The notes beneath the pieces were generated by a model, which worked only from the letters and a program-made list of their open reading frames with translations, had not been told where the DNA came from and searched no databases. 64,000 nt of DNA from the NCBI GenBank assembly GCA_963754085.1, contig CAVWFA010000003.1:391854-455853 (forward strand), in the 5' to 3' direction. Shown here one piece after another: positions 9,708 to 54,594 of this stretch. The stretch's first letter is position 1. Each line of letters starts with the position of its first letter. The stretch comes from Candidatus Aminicenantes bacterium. Lineage in GTDB: Bacteria; Acidobacteriota; Aminicenantia; Aminicenantales; Saccharicenantaceae. A program made the translations under genes and the position numbers.

Positions 9708-9736
9708 GGGGACATGTACCTGAGGTACGTGTCCCC
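9708..9736 (+). repeat. 29-nt hairpin element GGGGACATGTACC-TGA-GGTACGTGTCCCC (type 1)
   Basis: 13-bp arms with one T:G pair on the + strand, 9 nt after the GNAT stop. One of four near-identical copies in the window. Confidence 0.9.
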
Positions 9737-29277: not shown

Positions 29278-29348
29278 TAAAGAAGGGACCTGGTCTTCGC
29301 ATTTATGGTCGCCTCATTTGAAAATGCGAAGACCAGGTCCCTTCTTTA
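29278..29348. repeat. 71-nt palindromic element, perfect 27-bp arms (TAAAGAAGGGACCTGGTCTTCGCATTT / complement), 17-nt loop
   Basis: Arms at 29278-29304 and 29322-29348 are exact reverse complements. Confidence 0.9.
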
Positions 29349-29448: not shown

Positions 29449-29748
29449 ATGCATGCGCGTCTCTTGAGGATGCAGGTCAAACCCGAGCGGATCGACGAAG
29501 CGGCCCGGATCTTCGCCGAGGAGGTCGCGCCCGGCTGCCGCGCCCTGCCCGGCTTCCGCGGCGCCTATTTTCTGGTCGACCGCAAGCTCGGGGAGTGTCT
29601 GCCCATCACGCTCTGGGAGACCGAGGCCGAAATGATCGCCACGGAGGAGAACCGGTTTTTCCAGACCCAGCTCATGAAATTCCTGGGCCTCTTCCATCAC
29701 GGCCTCGTCCGAGAGGCCTTCGAGGTGGTGTTCTCCGAGCGCGCCTGA
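29449..29748 (+). CDS. ABM (antibiotic-biosynthesis-monooxygenase-like) ferredoxin-fold protein
   Basis: 99 aa, pattern ..PGF.G.Y.L.DR..G....ITLWETEAEM.. typical of ABM/Dabb small proteins. Confidence 0.6.
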   Translation: MHARLLRMQVKPERIDEAARIFAEEVAPGCRALPGFRGAYFLVDRKLGECLPITLWETEAEMIATEENRFFQTQLMKFLGLFHHGLVREAFEVVFSERA

Positions 29749-29833
29749 GAGGGGGTCAAACCTAAACTTCTCATAATTTCGGGCCGGAGACTTTGCGCTA
29801 GGAAATTATAAGAATTTAGGTTTGACCCCCTCT
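29749..29833. repeat. 85-nt imperfect palindromic element (AGAGGGGGTCAAACCTAAA.. / ..TTTAGGTTTGACCCCCTCT)
   Basis: About 32-bp arms with one indel and one mismatch, 21-nt loop. Starts directly after the ABM stop codon. Confidence 0.85.
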
Positions 29834-29868: not shown

Positions 29869-30645
29869 ATGACATCAAAGAGGATGACCGTCATCGCCAT
29901 CATGATCCTGACGGCGCTGGCCGTGCTGGCGGCGCTGCCCGCCCTGGCCCAGACTCCTTCGGCGAGCCCGCTCGTCCAACAGGGCGATGAGCTCTACACC
30001 CAGCGCGGCGACTTGGCCAAGGCCAAGGAAGCCCGGGCCAAGTACGAGGCCGCGCTGGCCGCCAAGGAGGACGACTACGGCGCCAGCTGGCGCCTGGCCC
30101 GGGTCCTCTACTGGATCGGCGACCACACGCCCACGAACGACGCCAAGAAACCGCTCTTCCAGAAGGGCATCGAGCACGCCAAGAAAGCCGTCGAGCTCGA
30201 TCCGAACAAGCCCGACGGGCACTTCTGGCTCGGCGTCAACTACGGCGTCTACGGCGAGGCCAAGGGCATCCTCAAGAGCCTGGCCCTGGTCAAGCCCATC
30301 AAGGCGGAGATGCGGCGCGTCCTCGAGCTCGAGCCCGCCTACGACCACGGCGGCGCCGACCGCGTCCTCGGCCGCGTTTATCACGAGCTGCCCGGGTTCG
30401 CCGGAGGCAGCGAGAAGCTCTCCCTCGAGTACCTGCTCAAGTCGGTCGGTTACGGCCCCCGCGTCGGCCTCAACCTCCTCTACCTGGCCGACACCTATCT
30501 CTCGCTCGACCGCGTCGAGGACGCCCGCAAGGCCCTCGAGACCATCCTGACCATGGAGCCTATGCCCGACCTCCTCCCCGAGACCGCCGAGGAACAGGCC
30601 CAGGCCCGCGAACGCCTCGAAAGGAAGCCTTTCAAGAAGAAATGA
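29869..30645 (+). CDS. Secreted TPR-like helical repeat protein
   Basis: Signal peptide followed by helical repeats (AKYEAALAA..DDY.A.WRLARV..). Confidence 0.65.
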   Translation: MTSKRMTVIAIMILTALAVLAALPALAQTPSASPLVQQGDELYTQRGDLAKAKEARAKYEAALAAKEDDYGASWRLARVLYWIGDHTPTNDAKKPLFQKGIEHAKKAVELDPNKPDGHFWLGVNYGVYGEAKGILKSLALVKPIKAEMRRVLELEPAYDHGGADRVLGRVYHELPGFAGGSEKLSLEYLLKSVGYGPRVGLNLLYLADTYLSLDRVEDARKALETILTMEPMPDLLPETAEEQAQARERLERKPFKKK

Positions 30646-31380
30646 CCGGTCCTGCTCCCGAAGGGGGACACGTACCCGGGGTACATGTCCCCGTTCCGAT
30701 ACTCTTCGAGACGGACGATTACCTCGCCGTCGACAAGCCCGAGGGGGTCGTGTCCGTCGCCGAGGCGGGCCGGGGCGGCCTGCCGGAGCTCCTGACAGAC
30801 CATTATGCCGGTAAGCTCTTCCCCGTCCACCGCCTCGACCGCGGCGCCAGCGGTGTCATCGTCTTCGCCAAGACCGCCGAGGCCCATCGCGCGCTCAACG
30901 GCCAGTTCGACCGCCGGGAGGTCCACAAGACTTATCTCGCACTCGTCGACGGCGTCCCGGCCACGAACCGGGGCCAGATCAACGCCCCCATCCGCGAGTT
31001 CGGCTCCGGCCGCATGGGCGTCGACCCCAAGCGCGGCAAGCCCTCCTCGACCGAATGGAAGGTGGCCGAGCGGCTCGACGACGCGACCCTCCTGCGCGTC
31101 AGCCCCTTGACCGGCCGGCGCCACCAGATCCGCGTCCATCTCTATCACATCGGCCATCCCATCCTCGGCGACCTCCGCTACGGCGACAAGGCGCGCCAGG
31201 AGCGGGTCCCGCGGCTCATGCTCCACGCCCTCTCGCTCGAGTTCTCTCTCCCTTCGGGGGAGCGCCTGACCGTCGAAGCCCCGCCGCCGCCGTCCTTCGA
31301 GGAGGTCCTGGCGGGGATGAGGAAGGCCCGGCCGAGAGCGGAAAGGCCGCGACCAAAACCGAACAAAGGAAATCCTGATG
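30642..31380 (+). CDS. RluA-family pseudouridine synthase (3' end uncertain; the ORF as given has no stop until 31994)
   Basis: YLAVDKPEGVV, HRLDRGASGVIVFAK and HQIRVHL motifs. Family-like sequence ends near 31330. A TGATGA lies at 31376-31381, but in another frame. Confidence 0.75.
30664..30692 (-). repeat. Type-1 hairpin element (GGGGACACGTACC-N3-GGTACATGTCCCC) inside the 5' end of the RluA ORF
   Basis: Same sequence as 9708-9736 but in the opposite orientation (T:G pair on the minus strand). Confidence 0.9.
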
Positions 31381-34108
31381 AACCGCATCGCCCGCCGCCC
31401 CTCCGTCCTCCAGTTTGCCGGGATCGTGTCGCTCGCGGCCCTGGCCTCTTATCTCCTCCTCACCCCCGCCGCGGCCCTGCCCGGCGCGGACGCTGCCGCG
31501 GGCGCGGCCAAGAAAGCCGCCCTCAAGCCCACCGCCGACGGCGCCAGGGCCTTCGCCCACGTCCGCTATCTGGCCTCGAACGATCTCAAGGGCCGCAAAT
31601 CCGGCACCCCGGAATACCGCCGCGCCGCCGAGTACGTGGCCGCCGAGATGCAGAAGGCCGGCCTCCAGCCGGGCGGCGACAACGGCACCTGGTTCCAGGA
31701 AGTCCCGTTCAAGAGCTGGTCGGACTTCGAGCAGCCCCTCCGCCTCGAGATCGTCTCGCCGCAGCGTCGCGTCTATTTCGCCGGCCGGGGCCGCGACTTC
31801 ACGCCGGTCGTCGGCACGGGCTCGGGCGCTGTTCGCGGCGGGCTCGTCTTCGCCGGCTACGGCGTCGCCGCCGGGAAGGACGGCTGGGACGACTACGCCG
31901 GGCTCGACGTCAAGGGCAAGATCGTCCTGCTCCTGCCGGACCTTCCCGCCTCCCTCGGAGACGACGCCAAGGCGGCTTGGACCTTCGAGAATAAGGTGAA
32001 GACCGCGGCCGCGAACGGCGCCGTCGGCCTCATCGAGATGGACCTCTCGACCCCCGGCGAGCCCCGCCGGCCCGGCGCCTCGCGCCAGCGCCCGGGCTTC
32101 CTCCGCGCCGGCCAGGCGCCGGAGGGCTTCGTCGTCCTGCGGGCCGGCCGCGACTTCCTCAACGACGCCTTCTATGCCGCCGGCAAGAGCTGGCGCGACC
32201 TCGTCAGCAAGACGCTCCGCCTGAAAAAGCCCTTCACCGCCGACGTCGGCGTCGAGGTCGAGATGGAAGCCCATTACGTCTCGGGCGAGCGGACGGCCCC
32301 GAACGTCGTCGGCATTTGGCCGGGCTCGGACCCCAAGCTCAAGGCCGAGGCCATCGTCATGGGCGGCCACCTCGACCACCTCGGCGTCGGCCTGGACGGC
32401 TGGATCTACCCGGGCGCGGACGACAACGCCACATCGGCCGCCACGGTCCTCGAGACGGCCCGGGCCCTGCGCGACGCCGGCTTCAAGCCGGCCCGGACCA
32501 TCGTCTTCGGCGCCTGGGCCGGCGAGGAGATGGGTCTCCAGGGCTCGCGCTGGTACACCGAACACCCGGTCATCCCCCTCGACAAGACCGTCCTTTATAT
32601 GAACATCGACATGGTCGGGACGGGCGACAGCGACCTCCTCGTGGGCGGCATGACCGAGTTCGCCGAGCTCTACGAGATCGTCAAGAAGGGCCTCGACCCG
32701 GTCGACGATCGCCAAGCTCAAGCCCCGGCCGAACTACCGCGGCTCCGACCACACCTCGTTCTGGGGCAAGAACGTCCCGGCCGTCAGCCTGCGCACGGGC
32801 GAGGTCCTGACCGAGAAGCTCGACGACGAGCACCCCGAGTACCACATGCCGGGCGACGGGCCGGGCACGATCGACCCCGAGCGCCTGCGCCAGGCCGGCC
32901 AGTATCACTGCGACGTCCTCCGGCACCTGGCGACCACCCGGGAGAACCTGCTCGACCCCCTCTTCCGGACGCTCTTCCTCCACCGCGACGCCATGGTCGT
33001 CGACATGCACTGCGACACGATCGGCCGGGCCCTGGCCGGCGAGGACCTGACGAAGGACCTGCCCAAGGGGCACATCGACATCCCCAAGCTCGAGCGCGGC
33101 GGCGTCGACCTCCAGGTCTTCGCCTGCTTCGCCCCGCCGCCGGCGAACGACCTCGAGAAGGCGAAGTCGGCCAACGGCGTTTTCGCCCAGATCGAGGCGG
33201 TCCGCGCGCTCGTCGACAGGAACCCCGACGACCTGGCCCTGGTCCTGTCCCCGCTCGACGCCAACGCCGCGAAGAACGAGAAGACCGGCGCGCTCATCGC
33301 CATCGAGGGCGGCTACGCCATCGAGAACGATCTCGTCCTCCTGCGGGAGTTCCACCGGGCCGGGGTGCGGCTGATGACGCTGACCCATTGGACGGCGACG
33401 GATTGGGCCGACGCCTCGGGCGATCCCCAGCCGGTCCACGGCGGGCTGACCGAGTTCGGCGAGAAGGTCGTGGCCGAGATGAACCGGCTGGGCATGATCA
33501 TCGACGTCTCCCACGCCGGCGACGAGACCTTTTGGGACGTGTTGAAGCTGTCCAAAGCGCCGGTCGTGGCCTCGCATTCGGCCTGCCGGGCGCTCTCTCC
33601 TCATCATCGGAATTTGAGCGACGAGATGCTCAAGGCCCTGGCGGAGAAGAACGGCCTCATCGGCATCACGGTGCTGCCCGGCTTCCTGAACAGCGCGCTC
33701 GAGGGGAAGCAGGACGAGCTCTACGACAAGGTCGCGGCCGAGCACGGCCTGCCCGCGGATTACCAGGCCATCGGCAAGGCCGAGCCGGCCAAGCGCGATG
33801 CCTTCTATGCCGACTTCGAGAAGCGCTGGGCGGCGCTCAAGAAGACGCTCCCCGTGGTGGACGTCAAGACCGTGGTCGACCACATCGACCACGTCGTCAA
33901 GGTCACCGGCGACTGCGACCACGTCGGCCTGGGCTCGGACTACGACGGGACGGGCGACACGCCGGCCGGGCTCGAGAATATCGGCCTCATTCCGAACATC
34001 ACCAAGGAGCTCGTCCGCCGCGGCTACAAGCCCGAGGACATCCGCAAGATCCTCGGCGCGAACTTCCTCCGCGTCTTCGCCGCCGTCGACCAGGCTAAAG
34101 AAAAGTAA
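31378..34108 (+). CDS. Exported M28 aminopeptidase (PA domain) fused in-frame to an M19 (renal-type) dipeptidase; one frame break near 32700
   Basis: M28 motifs: GGHLDH, DDNATS, GEEMGLQGS, and after the shift NYRGSDHTSFW..EYHMPGD. There is no stop before the M19 motifs (VVDMHCDT, RLMTLTHW, IIDVSHAG, SHSACRAL..HHRNL, GLGSDYDG). Confidence 0.7.
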
Positions 34109-47814: not shown

Positions 47815-47879
47815 GGGGACATGATACCCGTTTCCCATTTTCCGCTGGCTTAAAAAAGGGAAACGGGTATCATGTCCCC
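47815..47879. repeat. 65-nt palindromic element, perfect 22-bp arms GGGGACATGATACCCGTTTCCC / complement
   Basis: Arms at 47815-47836 and 47858-47879. Lies 4 nt after the stop at 47808-47810. Confidence 0.9.
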
Positions 47880-48004: not shown

Positions 48005-48367
48005 CTAGGGCAGGTAATTGGCCGAGTCGATGGCGATCGAGGAGTCGAGATAGACGGACAGGGCCCGGGCGATGGTGAAGACGATGAAGCCCATGACGAG
48101 GATGGTCAACGCGACGAGGGCGATGGCCTTGGCGTTCGAGACCTTCCGGGCCAGGCCCTGGGGCGCCAGCACGTCCCAGAGCGACTTGCCCACGAAGCCG
48201 ATCAAGAGCATCAGGCCGAAGAAGAGGCGATAGCCGTTGAGCCGGCCGTTCGCTTCGGTCGAGGCGGTGAGGCGGAAGAAGGGCGAGACGAGCCAGACGG
48301 CGAAGAGCAGGAAGAGCGCTGTGAGGACGACGGCCAGGGTCTTCTTGGGGTCGAGTTCAAGCTTCAC
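48005..48367 (-). CDS. Small 3-TM membrane protein (hypothetical)
   Basis: 120 aa with three clear hydrophobic helices and good GC3. Confidence 0.6.
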   Translation of the reverse strand: MKLELDPKKTLAVVLTALFLLFAVWLVSPFFRLTASTEANGRLNGYRLFFGLMLLIGFVGKSLWDVLAPQGLARKVSNAKAIALVALTILVMGFIVFTIARALSVYLDSSIAIDSANYLP

Positions 48368-48422: not shown

Positions 48423-48481
48423 GGGGACACAATACCAATTCCCCTATTTTCAATAAATGGGTGAATTGGTATTGTGTCCCC
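48423..48481. repeat. 59-nt palindromic element (19-bp arms GGGGACACAATACCAATTC / GAATTGGTATTGTGTCCCC), copy 1
   Basis: Part of a 70-nt block (48421-48490) that is 69/70 identical to 49889-49958. Confidence 0.95.
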
Positions 48482-48484
48482 GAT

Positions 48485-49705
48485 TTAGAGCGTCCCGGCG
48501 ACGGCCTGATGGAGGACCATTTCGGATTCAGTCTTGGTCGGGTCCTTCACCAGGATGCCCCGGGACGACTGGGCGAAGCCTCCCCTGCCGATGATCGTAT
48601 CCCGCGCTTCCGTCAGCCAAGCATTGATCCCGGCGTGATCGGGCCGGTGCCTCTCGTTGTTGTCGACGGGATACAGGACGTATTTCGCCGACCAGTAGTC
48701 CAGCGCGACCGGGTCCTGGCTGGCCAGGATGGTGTTGGCCCTGGTGGTGGCCGAGGCCGGATATCCCGTCAGGGCCCCTTGCGAGACCCAGATCGCGTCC
48801 ATAATGTTGAGGACTGGAGTGTGGACGGAGACCATCATCTTGCCGCAGGTCTCGCCGAGCCCGCCGTAATGGCGGAAATCCGAATTGCCGTCGGACATCG
48901 AGACCAGGCCGTACACGTGCTTGAGGGCACCTGTGATCTCCGAGCCGCCCGTGTCGTGGTGCTTGAGGACGGGAATGTTGATGAGCTTGAGGTTCGCGCC
49001 GTGGACCGTCCCGTTCCAGACGCCCTCGCGGAGCTCGACGCGCCGGCCGCCCGCCGTCGTGAAGCAGGGGTACGAGACGTTCTCATAGGTCCGGTAGCCG
49101 TTGGCCGAGTGCTCGGACGCCCCGATGAAGTTGCCGCGCACGGGATCGAGCAGGAACGCCGAGACCCGGGAGTCGTTGAACAGGCTGTTGACGAGCCAGA
49201 GGAACGAGTGGCTCTCGTCCTGGGCGTTGGCGTGGACCCCGGTGTCGCCGCCGTAGGAGCTCGAAGTGTTGCAGGCCAGGCTGCCCCGGCCCTGGCCGTT
49301 CTCGACGATGACCACCTCGCCGCCGAAACCGTCGGGGTGTTCGAGGATCCGCTGGATGACGCCGCGGACGAGGTCGCTGTTGGTGCAGCCGCGGTATTTC
49401 CACTGGGCGTTGACCTTGATGAGCACGACGTCGGCGGCGGCGATAAGGCCGTTCGCGCCGTTCAAGGCGCCCGGTGTCGAGGTCCGATAGAACTTGAGCC
49501 CGTTCTGCCCCATGAGCGCGAGGAGCGTGTCGACACCGGAATGGCGGCTGCCCGAGACGATGGCGTTGGCCGGGATCTGGGTGACCTGGAACAGGGCGTT
49601 CCGCGTATCCGACGGCTCATCGGGGGCGTTCGAGGTCTCGCACCGGACGAGCGGCAGCGAGGCCGCGCCGACCAACCCCATCTTGACGAAATCCCTGCGC
49701 TTCAT
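48485..49705 (-). CDS. Tat-signal DUF362-domain protein
   Basis: MKRRDFVKMGLVGAASL signal. VLIKVN, PVLKHHDTGG.EITGALKH, IMDAIWV and ILASQDPVALD patterns resemble DUF362. Confidence 0.7.
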   Translation of the reverse strand: MKRRDFVKMGLVGAASLPLVRCETSNAPDEPSDTRNALFQVTQIPANAIVSGSRHSGVDTLLALMGQNGLKFYRTSTPGALNGANGLIAAADVVLIKVNAQWKYRGCTNSDLVRGVIQRILEHPDGFGGEVVIVENGQGRGSLACNTSSSYGGDTGVHANAQDESHSFLWLVNSLFNDSRVSAFLLDPVRGNFIGASEHSANGYRTYENVSYPCFTTAGGRRVELREGVWNGTVHGANLKLINIPVLKHHDTGGSEITGALKHVYGLVSMSDGNSDFRHYGGLGETCGKMMVSVHTPVLNIMDAIWVSQGALTGYPASATTRANTILASQDPVALDYWSAKYVLYPVDNNERHRPDHAGINAWLTEARDTIIGRGGFAQSSRGILVKDPTKTESEMVLHQAVAGTL

Positions 49706-49841: not shown

Positions 49842-49870
49842 GGGGACACGTACGAAGCGTACATGTCCCC
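49842..49870 (-). repeat. Type-1 hairpin element (GGGGACACGTAC-GAAGC-GTACATGTCCCC)
   Basis: Same family as 9708, 30664 and 52178. Lies 20 nt from the next element. Confidence 0.9.
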
Positions 49871-49890: not shown

Positions 49891-49949
49891 GGGGACACAA
49901 TACCAATTCCCCTATTTGCAATAAATGGGTGAATTGGTATTGTGTCCCC
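49891..49949. repeat. 59-nt palindromic element, copy 2
   Basis: See 48423-48481. Confidence 0.95.
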
Positions 49950-51888: not shown

Positions 51889-51951
51889 GGGGGTCTGACG
51901 TACTTTTCGCGTATCCCGGTTTTGAGGCAAGCGAAAAGTAGGTCTGACCCC
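51889..51951. repeat. GGTCTGAC-type palindromic element (GGGGTCTGACGTACTTTTCGC ... GCGAAAAGTAGGTCTGACCCC)
   Basis: Same outer architecture as 62301-62366, with a different inner stem. Confidence 0.85.
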
Positions 51952-52002: not shown

Positions 52003-52823
52003 ATGTCCCGCCGCCACCCGAAAGGTTATTGGTACCTGCCCGGGCTCCTCTACGATCTCGCCTTCAAGCGCATGTTCCGGGGCTTGCGGCGACGGGTCTC
52101 GCGGACGATCGAACGGGAGGGGCTCTATCCTTGGCTGGAGGTCTGCTGCGGCACGGGCGACCAGCTGCGGCACGCGCGGGGACATGTACCGAAGGTACGT
52201 GTCCCCCAAATTGGATTGGCCGAGGAGGGGTTTGCTTGGGGGACGGCGAACATGGAGCCCGGAACGGGTGTCCCCGATGAGCAAGCACAGGGGGTCGAGG
52301 CACGAGACGGCCGGGCCGTAGTTGGCCTCGACCTGAGCTTCGGCTTCGTCCGATACGCCGGGCCCGCGCGCCCCAGGTCCCGTTCATTTGCGGCGATGCG
52401 GCCCGACTCCCGTTCAAGACCGGCTCCATGCGGGCCGTCAGCGTGTCGTTCGGCCTCCACGACAAGAGCCTGGAGCTCCGGAGCGCGATCCTGGCCGAAG
52501 CGAAGCGAGTGTTGAAGCCGGGCGGGCGGCTCATCGCCGTCGATTTCGAGAACCCCTGGGACGCGGCCTCGCGCGCCGGGGCCCTGTTCACCCGGGCCAT
52601 CGAGCGGCTCGCCGGGCGGGAGCACTACGGCAACGGCCGGGATTTCCTGCGCCGCGGCGGCCTGCGGGGCTTTCTCCGGGAGAACGGTTTCGCCGAGGTT
52701 GCGCGCCGCGACGTCCCGGTCGGCTCGGTCAGTGTGGTCGTCGCGAAACTCGACTCGGATCGCCCTTGCGATTTGCCGCCCGCGGAGATTAAGATGGCGT
52801 CAAACCATTTGTTCCCGAGATAG
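52003..52823 (+). CDS. Class I SAM-dependent methyltransferase interrupted by an in-frame block of about 98 nt of palindromic-element sequence, plus one frame break near 52360
   Basis: LEVCCGTGDQL (motif I), then about 52 aa instead of the usual about 20 before VVGLDLS. FICGDAARLPF..SMRAVSVSFGLH, VLKPGGRLIAVDF. Confidence 0.65.
52178..52206 (+). repeat. Type-1 hairpin element (GGGGACATGTACC-GAA-GGTACGTGTCCCC) inside the methyltransferase ORF
   Basis: Arms identical to those of 9708-9736. Confidence 0.9.
52238..52275. repeat. Degenerate GGGGAC...GGAACGGGTGTCCCC element fragment
   Basis: The right end resembles the right arm of 47858-47879 (GGGAAACGGGTATCATGTCCCC) with an internal deletion. 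Confidence 0.5.
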
Positions 52824-52836
52824 AAACGAGGTTGAA

Positions 52837-54594
52837 ATGAGCCAAAGACCGATCATCCGCATCAGCCCTCCCGTCGGTGTCTTCCTGACCGTTCTGCTCG
52901 TTATCGCCGCGGCCTCCCCTGCCCTGCGCGCGGCCGACGAGACGACCGCGAAGGTGGACAAGATCTTCGCGTCATGGGACAAGACGACGTCGCCGGGCAT
53001 GGCCCTGGCCGTGATCAAGGACGGCAAGATCGTCTACGAGCGCGGCTACGGCATGGCCAAGCTCGAGGACGGCATCGTCAATACGCCCGATAAAGTGTTC
53101 GACATCGGCTCGGTCTCGAAGCAGTTCACCGCGGCCTGCGTGGCCATGCTCGTCCGGGACGGCAAGGTCCGGGTCGAGGACGACATCCGCAAGTACCTGC
53201 CCGAGATGCCCGCCTACGGGAAGCCGGTGACGGTCGACCACCTGCTCCATCACACCAGCGGCATCCGCGACTACAACGCCCTGCTCAGCCTGGCCGGGTT
53301 CCGGCCGGAATCGGACTCGCCCACGGTCGAGGAGGCGGTCGAGATCATCCGGCGGCAGAAGAAGCTCAACTACACGCCGGGCGACGAGTACTCCTACACC
53401 AACAGCGGCTTCTTCCTGCTCAGCCAGATCGTCGAGAGGGTCAGCGGGAAGTCGCTGAACGCCTTCGCCCAGGAGCGGATCTTCAAGCCGCTGGGCATGA
53501 CCAAGACGCTCTTCCAGGACGATCACACCCAGATCATCAGGGACCGGGCCACGGGTTACACGCAGGCCGAGTGGCGGCGGCTTCAAGATCAACATGAGCA
53601 ACTGGGACGAGACCGGCGACGGCAACGTCTACACGACCGTGCGGGACCTCTACCTCTGGGACCAGGCGTTCTACACCGGCGCGCTCGGCAAGGACCTGAC
53701 GGACATGCTCCAGACGACGGGCGTCCTCAACTCGGGCAAGGCCATCGATTACGCCTGGGGGCTCGTCGTGCGCGATTACAAGGGCCTCAAGGTGGTCGAG
53801 CACGGCGGGGCCTGGGTCGGATTCAGAGCGGCGATCGCGCGCTTCCCCGAGCAGAAGTTCTCGGTCGTCATCCTGGCCAATCTCGACTCGATCGACCCGT
53901 CGGGGCTGGCGTTCCGGGTGGCGGACGTCTATCTCGCGGAGGAGCTTAAGGGCGCGGCCAAGGCGCCGAAAGGGCGGGGCGGGCGAGTGCGGCGGCGGAC
54001 GGGGAAATGCGACGAAGGCCAAGCCCGAAGGCCGAGCCGTTCGCGGTGCCCAGGGCGGAGCTCGAGGCCCTTGTGGGGAACTGGGAGGACGTCGGGTTCG
54101 GCCAGTGGCTCGCGCTCTCGATAAAGGACGACAAGCTGACGGCGGCCCTGGGAGGCCGGAACTTCACGCTCAAGCCGATCGCGCCGGGGAAGTTCGTCGC
54201 GGCGGAGCGGGCGGACGTCGAGCTCGAGTTCAAGGCGGCCGATAAGGGCAAAGCCGCGACAGGGCGGATGACGGTCGGGAAGAGCCTGGAATTCCGGTTC
54301 GCGAAGGCGGCGCCGCTCAAGGCCATGAGCGCGGCCGAAATGGCCGGATATGCGGGGACTTATGTCAGCGAGGAACTGCTCGACGCCAAGTATGTGCTCA
54401 AGGTCGACAAGGACACGCTGGTCCTCAAGACGCGGGACGTGCCCAGGGCAGAGCTCAAGGCCATGGCCCCGGACAAGTTCACGGTCCCCGGCTACGGGCT
54501 CAACATCGAGTTCGTGCGAGGCCAGGGCGGCAAGGTGACGGGCTTCACGGTGAGCGTGGGCAGGGCGGCGGGGATCGTCTTCTCAAAGAAATGA
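52837..54594 (+). CDS. Exported serine hydrolase (beta-lactamase-like, SVSK motif) with a C-terminal beta domain; two frame breaks (about 53572 and about 53990)
   Basis: FDIGSVSKQFTA, YSYTNSGF. Continuation GGGFKINMSNWDETGDGNVYTT.. and ..PFAVPRAELEALVGNW.. run in successive frames. Confidence 0.75.

Follow-up and report, generated by a model that had tools for sequence, protein, structure and literature searches.

The hairpin considered in this study, which I will call the type-1 hairpin, is 29 nucleotides (nt) long and lies inside a methyltransferase gene of Candidatus Aminicenantes bacterium (assembly GCA_963754085.1, contig CAVWFA010000003.1, positions 391,854 to 455,853). This stretch of 64,000 nt is referred to as the window, and positions given without further label are those of the window. 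The hairpin is one copy of a dispersed palindrome, akin to the repetitive extragenic palindromes (REPs), and probably resides within a permissive, disordered loop of the methyltransferase, where it is read through as peptide. It is found at the same site in related genes, some of which carry a collapsed form of it, and also between genes and, in frame, within unrelated proteins. Loci used for comparison are given L numbers and proteins P numbers.

The Methyltransferase Gene and Its Linker

The methyltransferase open reading frame (ORF) lies on the + strand, begins with ATG at 52003 and is read in frame 1 as far as about 52359, beyond which frame 3 carries it on to a stop codon at 52821-52823. 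The 273-residue product obtained by a one-base repair matches Methyltransf_25 (1.1e-15, 58.5 bits, as against a curated cut-off of 27), Methyltransf_11 (7.6e-15, 55.8 bits, cut-off 21.2) and Ubie_methyltran (2.2e-11, 44 bits, cut-off 20.1); as judged from these matches, it is a UbiE-type class I S-adenosylmethionine (SAM) methyltransferase. Residues G50, T51 and G52 of motif I are invariant among 118 homologues, and G108, L109 and D110, at the end of beta2, are invariant in comparisons with 26 and with 118 homologues. The acidic residue that ends beta2 typically binds the ribose of SAM in class I methyltransferases.

Between these two motifs lies a hypervariable linker. A protein search gave 302 homologues, of which those that bear names are Aminicenantes, and 15 orthologous loci were taken from GTDB genomes carrying Aminicenantes or Acidobacteriota labels, along with a few other uncultured labels. 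The linker occupies 33-177 nt in the 15 GTDB orthologues; among 115 homologues its median is 26 residues and its range 11-65. At 55 residues the linker of the window is long, as had been noted in an earlier reading made from the letters of the DNA alone (the sequence-only reading), which put the spacing at about 52 residues against about 20 in typical class I methyltransferases. It exceeds the linkers of the shortest orthologues by about 126-132 nt. Homologues that have no hairpin sequence mostly do not keep a long linker (theirs is 11-14 residues), in agreement with that reading's view of the extra length as inserted DNA.

The hairpin itself has 13-nt arms and a 3-nt loop, with Watson-Crick pairs at 12 of the 13 stem positions and a T.G pair at the other, and is therefore not the perfect hairpin it had been called. 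Folded as RNA, it has a free energy of -23 kcal/mol (z = -6.3).

The sequence-only reading had assigned to the element a longer segment, 98 nt inserted in frame and made up of this hairpin and a degenerate second element. The ends it named, GGGGACA starting at 52178 and TGTCCCC ending at 52275, are indeed there, and translation bears out its claim that no stop codon interrupts the gene's frame across the segment (the count over the whole hairpin-bearing linker is zero). The length of 98 nt is not a multiple of three, however, and the identification as element stands for the first 29 nt and fails for the supposed second copy. The latter (52238-52275) has just the GGGGAC/GTCCCC ends in common with the type-1 element and folds no better than shuffled sequence (z = -0.65), and further copies of 52207-52290, sought in 1.2 Mb of related DNA, were not found outside the orthologous loci. 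The linker tail from 52207 to 52275 is 93-95% identical with that of L081-L083 and with no other. GGGGGAC (52238-52244) and TGTCCCC (52269-52275) may once have bounded a hairpin that has since degenerated; in L004-L010 it is the hairpin's right end that aligns with the window's TGTCCCC-GAT (52269-52278), which supports 52275 as an old element end. The demonstrable element is 29 of the 98 nt, and linker specific to the lineage makes up the other 69.

Gain, Collapse and Decay of the Hairpin in Orthologous Genes

A full hairpin, at the same site and in the same orientation and frame, is present in L001 (two copies), L005, L007, L010, L081, L082 and L083 (two copies), and orthologues that share it may be as little as 56-65% identical in protein. 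At the same place L002, L006 and L008 have collapsed palindromes of 14 nt, for example GGGGACGTGTCCCC, and seven orthologues (L003, L009 and L011-L015) are free of the hairpin. At the level of protein, the hairpin peptide is intact in 30 of the 115 homologues and reduced to relics (such as GHLPLVRVP, GRVPAVRIP, GDAPLARVP or GHAPD) in 31, while 54 have neither. A rough midpoint-rooted neighbor-joining tree, which carries no support values, places the hairpin-free short linkers at the base and calls for at least 18 changes of state.

Two of the loci, L207 and L208, catch one such change at close range. They are about 99% identical over the gene, and a 15-nt in-frame indel turns the full hairpin of the first into GGGGACATGCCCCC in the second. 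The change of hairpin form from L207 to L208 needs one extra substitution as well, and a single clean slipped-strand event was for that reason ruled out as the origin of the deletion. Change in the other direction is seen in L083, where 54 nt, the hairpin with its flanks among them, are duplicated in tandem and in frame; the same arrangement is present in L082 in diverged form. With the additional hairpin in place, the ORFs of both L082 and L083 remain open when read in frame from the usual start codon. The public gene calls for these loci (L082 620-1159 and L083 2000-2539) start instead at a methionine codon internal to the insert and give proteins of 179 residues.

The closest counterpart of the window gene is that of L081, whose protein (P0001) has the same 55-residue linker within an intact ORF of 262 residues, 84% identical overall. 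Because the insert is shared with the intact ORFs of close relatives, the insertion is older than any decay, and I infer from these alignments that the copy in the window was inherited and not newly inserted. The same ORFs indicate that the protein evidently tolerates the insert, one of two outcomes that the sequence-only reading had entertained.

The same loop also holds a different hairpin. The linkers of P0084, P0096, P0102 and P0120 read ...KRGSNL...RFDPL..., and the linker DNA of L204 and L205 contains, in frame, a long hairpin AAGAGGGGGTCAAACCTAC...GTAGGTTTGACCCCCTCTT of the GGGGTCAAACCTA family. The methyltransferase loop is hit by at least two hairpin families.

Predicted Structure of the Linker

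P0001 was modeled with AlphaFold2 using 118 homologues. The model has beta1 at residues 44-47, beta2 at 106-109 and, between the two, a short helix at 53-58, and the region from the helix to beta2 is modeled as coil with pLDDT (the predicted local distance difference test) of 35-47, as compared to 82-96 in the Rossmann core. The insert is thus predicted to be a disordered surface loop, with pLDDT below 50 and located between alphaA and beta2, where the sequence-only reading had expected a loop. The top Foldseek matches of the model are the class I methyltransferases 1ve3, 8ys9 and 4obw (probability 1.00), and the beta2 segment, as matched, begins at residue 60 of 1ve3 and at residue 103 of P0001.

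Over its full length the model is matched best by 8ys9 (TM-score 0.61, normalized to the target), a phosphatidylethanolamine N-methyltransferase from bacteria. A membrane-associated enzyme that methylates lipids, rather than UbiE, would be in keeping with the long helix at the N-terminus of the model (P0001 residues 12-39).

Type-1 Hairpins Elsewhere in the Window and in Related Metagenomes

The type-1 pattern has four matches in the window, as compared to 0.01 expected (Table 1). Metagenome contigs supplied at least 120 stretches that contain the exact pattern, and the family statistics given here rest on 143 exact copies from L084-L203, a lower bound on the size of the family. The consensus of the element is GGGGACAYGTACC-NNN-GGTACRTGTCCCC, 29 nt, usually followed by a T-rich tail.

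The mismatch seen in the methyltransferase copy is a property of the family: position 8 of the stem is T.G or C.A in 137 of the 143 copies and fully paired in the other 6, the two orientations being equally common (71 and 66). This asymmetry resembles a recognition feature more than drift. Among the 133 unique copies, the tail is visible as 50-73 T per position from +2 to +6, oriented with the T.G strand; the copy in the window methyltransferase is without it. The DNA around the copies has about 64% G+C, the hairpin loop is variable, and the logo of the flanks revealed no conserved tag or direct repeat. Copies downstream of genes have no bias in orientation (22 forward and 21 reverse), and a rule at the level of RNA, according to which the G.U pair would be preferred in mRNA, was dropped on that account.

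Most copies lie between genes or at the edges of ORFs, and about 15 of the 143 are credibly internal to genes. Calls of coding and intergenic position came from a gene finder based on G+C content at third codon positions (GC3). Its strict setting missed both coding copies in the window, so that its counts are lower bounds, and its looser setting includes false positives at ORF edges, for example in L142 and L171.

In-frame copies are found in genes for the methyltransferase, an RluA-type pseudouridine synthase, TsaD, a ROK kinase, a GH38 mannosidase-like protein and a DnaE-like polymerase. Pfam identified the ROK kinase, in which the hairpin peptide falls within the ROK domain, as well as TsaD, in which the insert lies between N-terminal strands on two contigs, and the GH38-like protein, in which three separate sites are common to three contigs; the RluA-type host was also checked with Pfam. 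The DnaE-like host was identified by eye. All three reading frames are in use, giving GHVPxV[RH]VP, GT[RC]TxGT[CR]P and GD[TM]YxRY[MV]SP, and type-1 stems are free of stop codons in every frame.

Two of the coding copies have peculiarities of their own. The RluA-type gene of the window has its reverse hairpin within the first 17 codons (30642-30700, MTGPAPEGGHVPGVHVPVP...); the ATG of this gene shares bases with the TGA that ends the upstream gene, and no other in-frame start codon follows the hairpin. Near position 3284 of L108 (- strand), five tandem repeats of ERGHAPEGLQ directly precede a full hairpin peptide, ERGHVPEVHVP, in the N-terminal region of what appears by eye to be a periplasmic binding protein-like protein, and the tandem units resemble amplified collapsed hairpins.

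Table 1. Positions of the hairpins and of the parts of the methyltransferase gene in the window.
Feature	Position	Strand	Basis
N-terminal part of the methyltransferase, frame 1: N-terminal helix, motif I, hairpin-bearing linker, beta2 GLD, FGFVRYA	52003..52359	+	ORF, Pfam on repaired protein, homologue alignment
Motif I codons C-C-G-T-G-D (glycine-rich SAM loop)	52144..52161	+	Read from sequence
Hypervariable linker from motif I to beta2, 165 nt / 55 residues	52159..52323	+	Orthologue and homologue comparison, AlphaFold2 model
Type-1 hairpin GGGGACATGTACC-GAA-GGTACGTGTCCCC, T.G-forward orientation, translated (R)GHVPKVRVP	52178..52206	+	Pattern match, fold
Lineage-specific linker tail, with GGGGGAC at 52238-52244 and TGTCCCC at 52269-52275	52207..52275	+	Comparison with relatives, fold
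G-L-D codons, end of beta2	52324..52332	+	Homologue alignment
Frame break, one base short with respect to close relatives, TACGCC[A]GGGCCC	52359..52360	+	Alignment with L081, L082, L083
C-terminal part of the methyltransferase, frame 3, with 11-residue extension beyond the usual ...PPAE stop	52360..52823	+	Translation, homologue alignment
Type-1 copy outside any called ORF	9708..9736		Pattern match
Type-1 copy, reverse orientation, in frame in N-terminal extension of RluA-type pseudouridine synthase (GHVPGVHVP)	30664..30692		
Type-1 variant with 2 mismatches, downstream of the stop of a - strand TPR gene; long hairpin 49891-49949 next to it	49842..49870		
Long hairpin, GGGGTCAAACCTA type, same family as the inverted repeats of the L117 Y1 transposase	29748..29833		
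Long hairpin, GGGGTCTGAC type, in promoter-side intergenic region	51890..51951		

A Transposase Gene Flanked by the Second Hairpin Family

The second hairpin family found in the linker leads to a transposase. Locus L117 contains a 331-residue ORF (162-1157) with a Y1_Tnp domain (PF01797, 4.4e-10; IS200-like, of the RAYT/TIRYT type), and the gene lies between perfect inverted repeats of 33 nt, TAAGAAGGGGTCAAACCTACACTTTTCAAGTTT, that start GGGGTCAA (L117 114-1217). The sequence of these repeats is that of the hairpin in the linkers of L204 and L205 and of the window at 29748-29833. The Y1_Tnp gene of L117 is a candidate for the autonomous partner of the GGGGTCAAACC hairpins, and the juxtaposition of gene and repeats suggests that this family is most likely mobilized by a Y1 transposase. 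For the type-1 hairpin, mobilization of the same kind would follow by analogy with the sister family.

Long hairpins are also found around the methyltransferase gene. In the intergenic region upstream of it L082 and L083 have an extra GGGGTCTGAC-type hairpin of 67 nt, and no target-site duplication was found at this pair of filled and empty sites. L081 has a type-1 hairpin upstream of the gene where the window keeps only a remnant. Long hairpins with similar ends lie in the window at 47815-47879, 48423-48481, 49891-49949, 51890-51951, 62303-67 and 29748-29833, several of them abutting stop codons.

The first three have GGGGACA...TGTCCCC ends and start 3-5 nt past stop codons. Two near-identical long hairpins flank the gene at 48485-49705, and the sequence they have in common, CTAAATCGGGGACAC, includes the stop codon. 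That gene and the one at 48005-48367, likewise flanked by long hairpins, were considered as possible transposases and rejected; their translations appear by eye to be a protein with a Tat-type signal and a small membrane protein, respectively. The window also has a perfect hairpin of another sequence type at 29278-29348, with 27-nt arms (TAAAGAAGGGACCTGGTCTTCGCATTT) and a 17-nt loop.

The Frame Break and Neighboring Genes

The sequence-only reading had warned of a separate frame break near 52360. It is present in the sequence, between 52359 and 52360, where L081 and L083 read TACGCCAGGGCCC with the A in place and L082 is likewise one base longer than the window. A count of frameshifts over the whole window by phase segmentation was too noisy to give a number, and two comparisons at the level of the gene were used instead. 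The beta-lactamase/DUF3471-like gene at 52838-54594 differs from its counterpart in L081, a single ORF of 588 residues, by indels of -2, -1, +3, -1 and -2 that spread it over three frames, and the M28-like peptidase gene at 31378-34108, 20 kb away, switches frame near 32690. Given frame-disrupting indels in two other genes of the window, the break in the methyltransferase gene is more likely an assembly indel than decay, and most likely just that. By the alignments with relatives, the hairpin insert is older than the break, and the two are independent.

The TAA codon that usually ends the methyltransferase is out of frame in the window, and 11 residues are added in consequence. L081-L083 have a gene of 160 codons between the methyltransferase and the beta-lactamase-like gene that is missing from the window (52780-52840, as compared to L081 1895-2470). 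The window junction at this site reads GGCGTCAAACC, like an arm of the GGGGTCAAACC hairpin family.

Discussion

The reading that I favor, and consider probable, is that a REP-like element has been received by a loop of the methyltransferase able to accommodate it. Under this reading, the hairpins would spread as non-autonomous elements, mobilized as hairpins of single-stranded DNA, probably by a Y1 (HUH) transposase of the RAYT or TIRYT type. Of the insertions into coding DNA, only those in frame and free of stop codons would persist. The linker would serve as a permissive sink, whose copies go on to evolve nearly neutrally by duplication, collapse and point decay. The hairpin is absent or decayed in about three-quarters of the homologues, near-identical strains differ in it, and elsewhere it occurs in both orientations and all frames, a combination that argues against a required function at this site.

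Several observations sit less easily with this reading. The methyltransferase genes yielded no clean pair of sites, one with the type-1 hairpin and one empty, between unchanged flanks, and insertion is therefore deduced from the distribution of the hairpin among homologues. A search for Y1_Tnp motifs in the 1.2 Mb of fetched loci gave a single gene, that of L117, and none flanked by type-1 hairpins, so that the link to a transposase comes from the sister family only. The calls of coding position come from a gene finder that is crude, and the window methyltransferase is formally frameshifted, which makes its function in this genome predicted at most. In addition, 26 stem bases are identical across orthologues only about 60% identical in protein, which is hard to square with pure neutrality. 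To account for such exact conservation one needs recurrent insertion, gene conversion or some selection acting on the stem.

The last of these choices is the basis of a different explanation, that the hairpin is kept by selection for a nucleic-acid function, whether as an intragenic terminator or attenuator by which transcription is coupled to translation, an mRNA-stability element or a protein-binding DNA site. The contrast between a constant stem and varying loop and flanks, in orthologues 56-65% identical, would be expected of it, the RNA hairpin is very stable (-23 kcal/mol), and the consensus of the family shares a T-rich 3' tail with intrinsic terminators. The methyltransferase copy in the window, though, has no such tail, and a scan of the whole window with Rfam found no family at gathering score. 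The distribution of the hairpin also speaks against such a function. Half of the homologues do without it, many copies are decayed or collapsed, and near-identical strains differ in having it. In other genes it occurs in both orientations and all three frames, and as often forward as reverse relative to the upstream gene (22 and 21). I regard selection of this kind as unlikely.

An explanation specific to this genome, and quite improbable, is that the gene in the window is a decaying pseudogene that merely offered a landing pad to the element. The sequence-only reading had named this as the alternative that would undo its own account. The 1-nt break would fit, as would the state of the adjoining beta-lactamase-like gene, with its several frame-disrupting indels, and the loss of the 160-codon gene that relatives have. 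Neither a landing pad in a pseudogene nor a recent insertion here agrees with a hairpin shared by orthologues 56-65% identical and older than the frame break, or with the presence of the hairpin and the entire 55-residue linker in intact ORFs of close relatives. The frame switch in the M28-like peptidase gene (near 32690) makes a pattern more typical of assembly indels.

There is very little chance that the hairpins are immobile and arose in place, through template-switch (quasi-palindrome) mutation at G-rich sites (...CGG GG...), and are alike by convergence. Collapsed palindromes of 14 nt (GGGGACRTGTCCCC) do occur exactly where relatives have full hairpins, and many hairpin-free linkers begin R-G (CGG GG.), but convergence cannot give 26 identical stem bases and the same mismatch at 143 or more loci in many metagenomes, and it leaves unexplained why another hairpin family should share its sequence with the inverted repeats around a transposase gene. 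Equally far-fetched is the notion that the peptide GHVPxVRVP and the long linker are kept as a module that serves the protein, such as a proline-rich region for interactions or a membrane-proximal linker, for while the reading frame is always kept (all orthologues use the GHVP frame at this site), the region is predicted, with very low confidence, to be disordered, the linker is hypervariable in sequence and in length (11-65 residues), the other two frames (GTRTxGTCP and GDMYxRYVSP) are used elsewhere, and an unrelated hairpin gives a different peptide at the same site.

Returning to mobile REP-like hairpins, one may extend the reading to a conjecture that I put forward with considerable doubt: that Aminicenantes harbor a superfamily of hairpins with GGGG(A/T)C ends still actively mobilized by Y1 (TIRYT-type) transposases, and that these enter coding DNA so easily that disordered loops of housekeeping enzymes, such as those of TsaD, DnaE and the methyltransferase, are renewable traps. 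Inheritance would then not be the sole source of the conserved stem; copies would keep being re-inserted or converted, and the cell may have put them to use as structure within genes.

The findings have consequences beyond this gene. They add an uncultured phylum to the few cases of selfish palindromes translated within working proteins, and a single loop with two hairpin families and a 15-nt in-frame polymorphism at the level of strains is a natural system for following gain, collapse and decay. There is a practical effect on annotation, in that gene callers cut two intact orthologues (P0012 and P0013) back to a methionine internal to the insert. Linkers derived from hairpins inflate the apparent diversity of proteins, and the hairpins may cause assembly or indel problems. 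The L117 Y1_Tnp gene and its GGGGTCAAACC repeats provide a candidate pair of transposase and repeat.

Comparison with Known Palindromic Elements

A search of the literature on palindromic repeats in Aminicenantes found only papers related to CRISPR and no report of repeats of this kind. The known systems that offer a comparison come from elsewhere. Miniature inverted-repeat transposable elements, for one, have terminal inverted repeats, a target-site duplication and a length of about 50-500 bp, whereas the type-1 hairpin is 29 nt, with no direct repeat in the flanks and no duplication. SPRITE and other terminator-like mobile hairpins (PMC10969869) are similar in being GC-rich hairpins with T-rich 3' tails found mostly just past stop codons. 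The methyltransferase copy differs from them in lying inside a coding region and in having no tail.

TIRtrons (TIRYT) are RAYT-like tyrosine transposases whose flanking inverted repeats share GGGGWSAS, and an Acidobacteria group is included among them (PMC3733652). The Y1_Tnp gene of L117 is like them in being bracketed by 33-nt inverted repeats that are also dispersed as hairpins, those of the sister family. The type-1 hairpins start GGGGACAC/T, of which GGGGACAC (the C variant) fits GGGGWSAS; GGGGACAT and GGGGTCAA miss the last position. The type-1 hairpin resembles the transposase-flanking repeats only in its GGGG(A/T)C start and in general architecture.

Closer are the intragenic REPs, of GTAG- and CGTC-tagged families in several phyla, described by Di Nocera et al. 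(2013; PMC3733652). They too are imperfect palindromes of 20-40 bp found mostly downstream of genes, with frequent G.T pairs in their stems, and a minority of them lie inside ORFs, where they encode 10-30 residues and often form dimers or clusters. The type-1 hairpin has neither the GTAG nor the CGTC tag (its ends are GGGGACA/TGTCCCC, with an internal GTAC), and the phylum of its host is outside that survey (PMC3733652).

The Rickettsia palindromic elements (RPEs), of which RPE-1 has about 100-150 bp, are confined to Rickettsia (PMC10969869, PMC3733652). In common with the hairpin described here, they are dispersed palindromes found in frame in many unrelated functional genes, each of which they lengthen by a short peptide that loops apparently tolerate, and their sites may be shared by orthologues of different species. 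They are set apart by length and host, the type-1 hairpin being 29 nt (sometimes with a short tail), mostly intergenic and found in Aminicenantes (Acidobacteriota). The behavior of the type-1 hairpin is that of a known kind of selfish DNA, closest to the RPEs and to the intragenic REPs, and by definition a member of neither.

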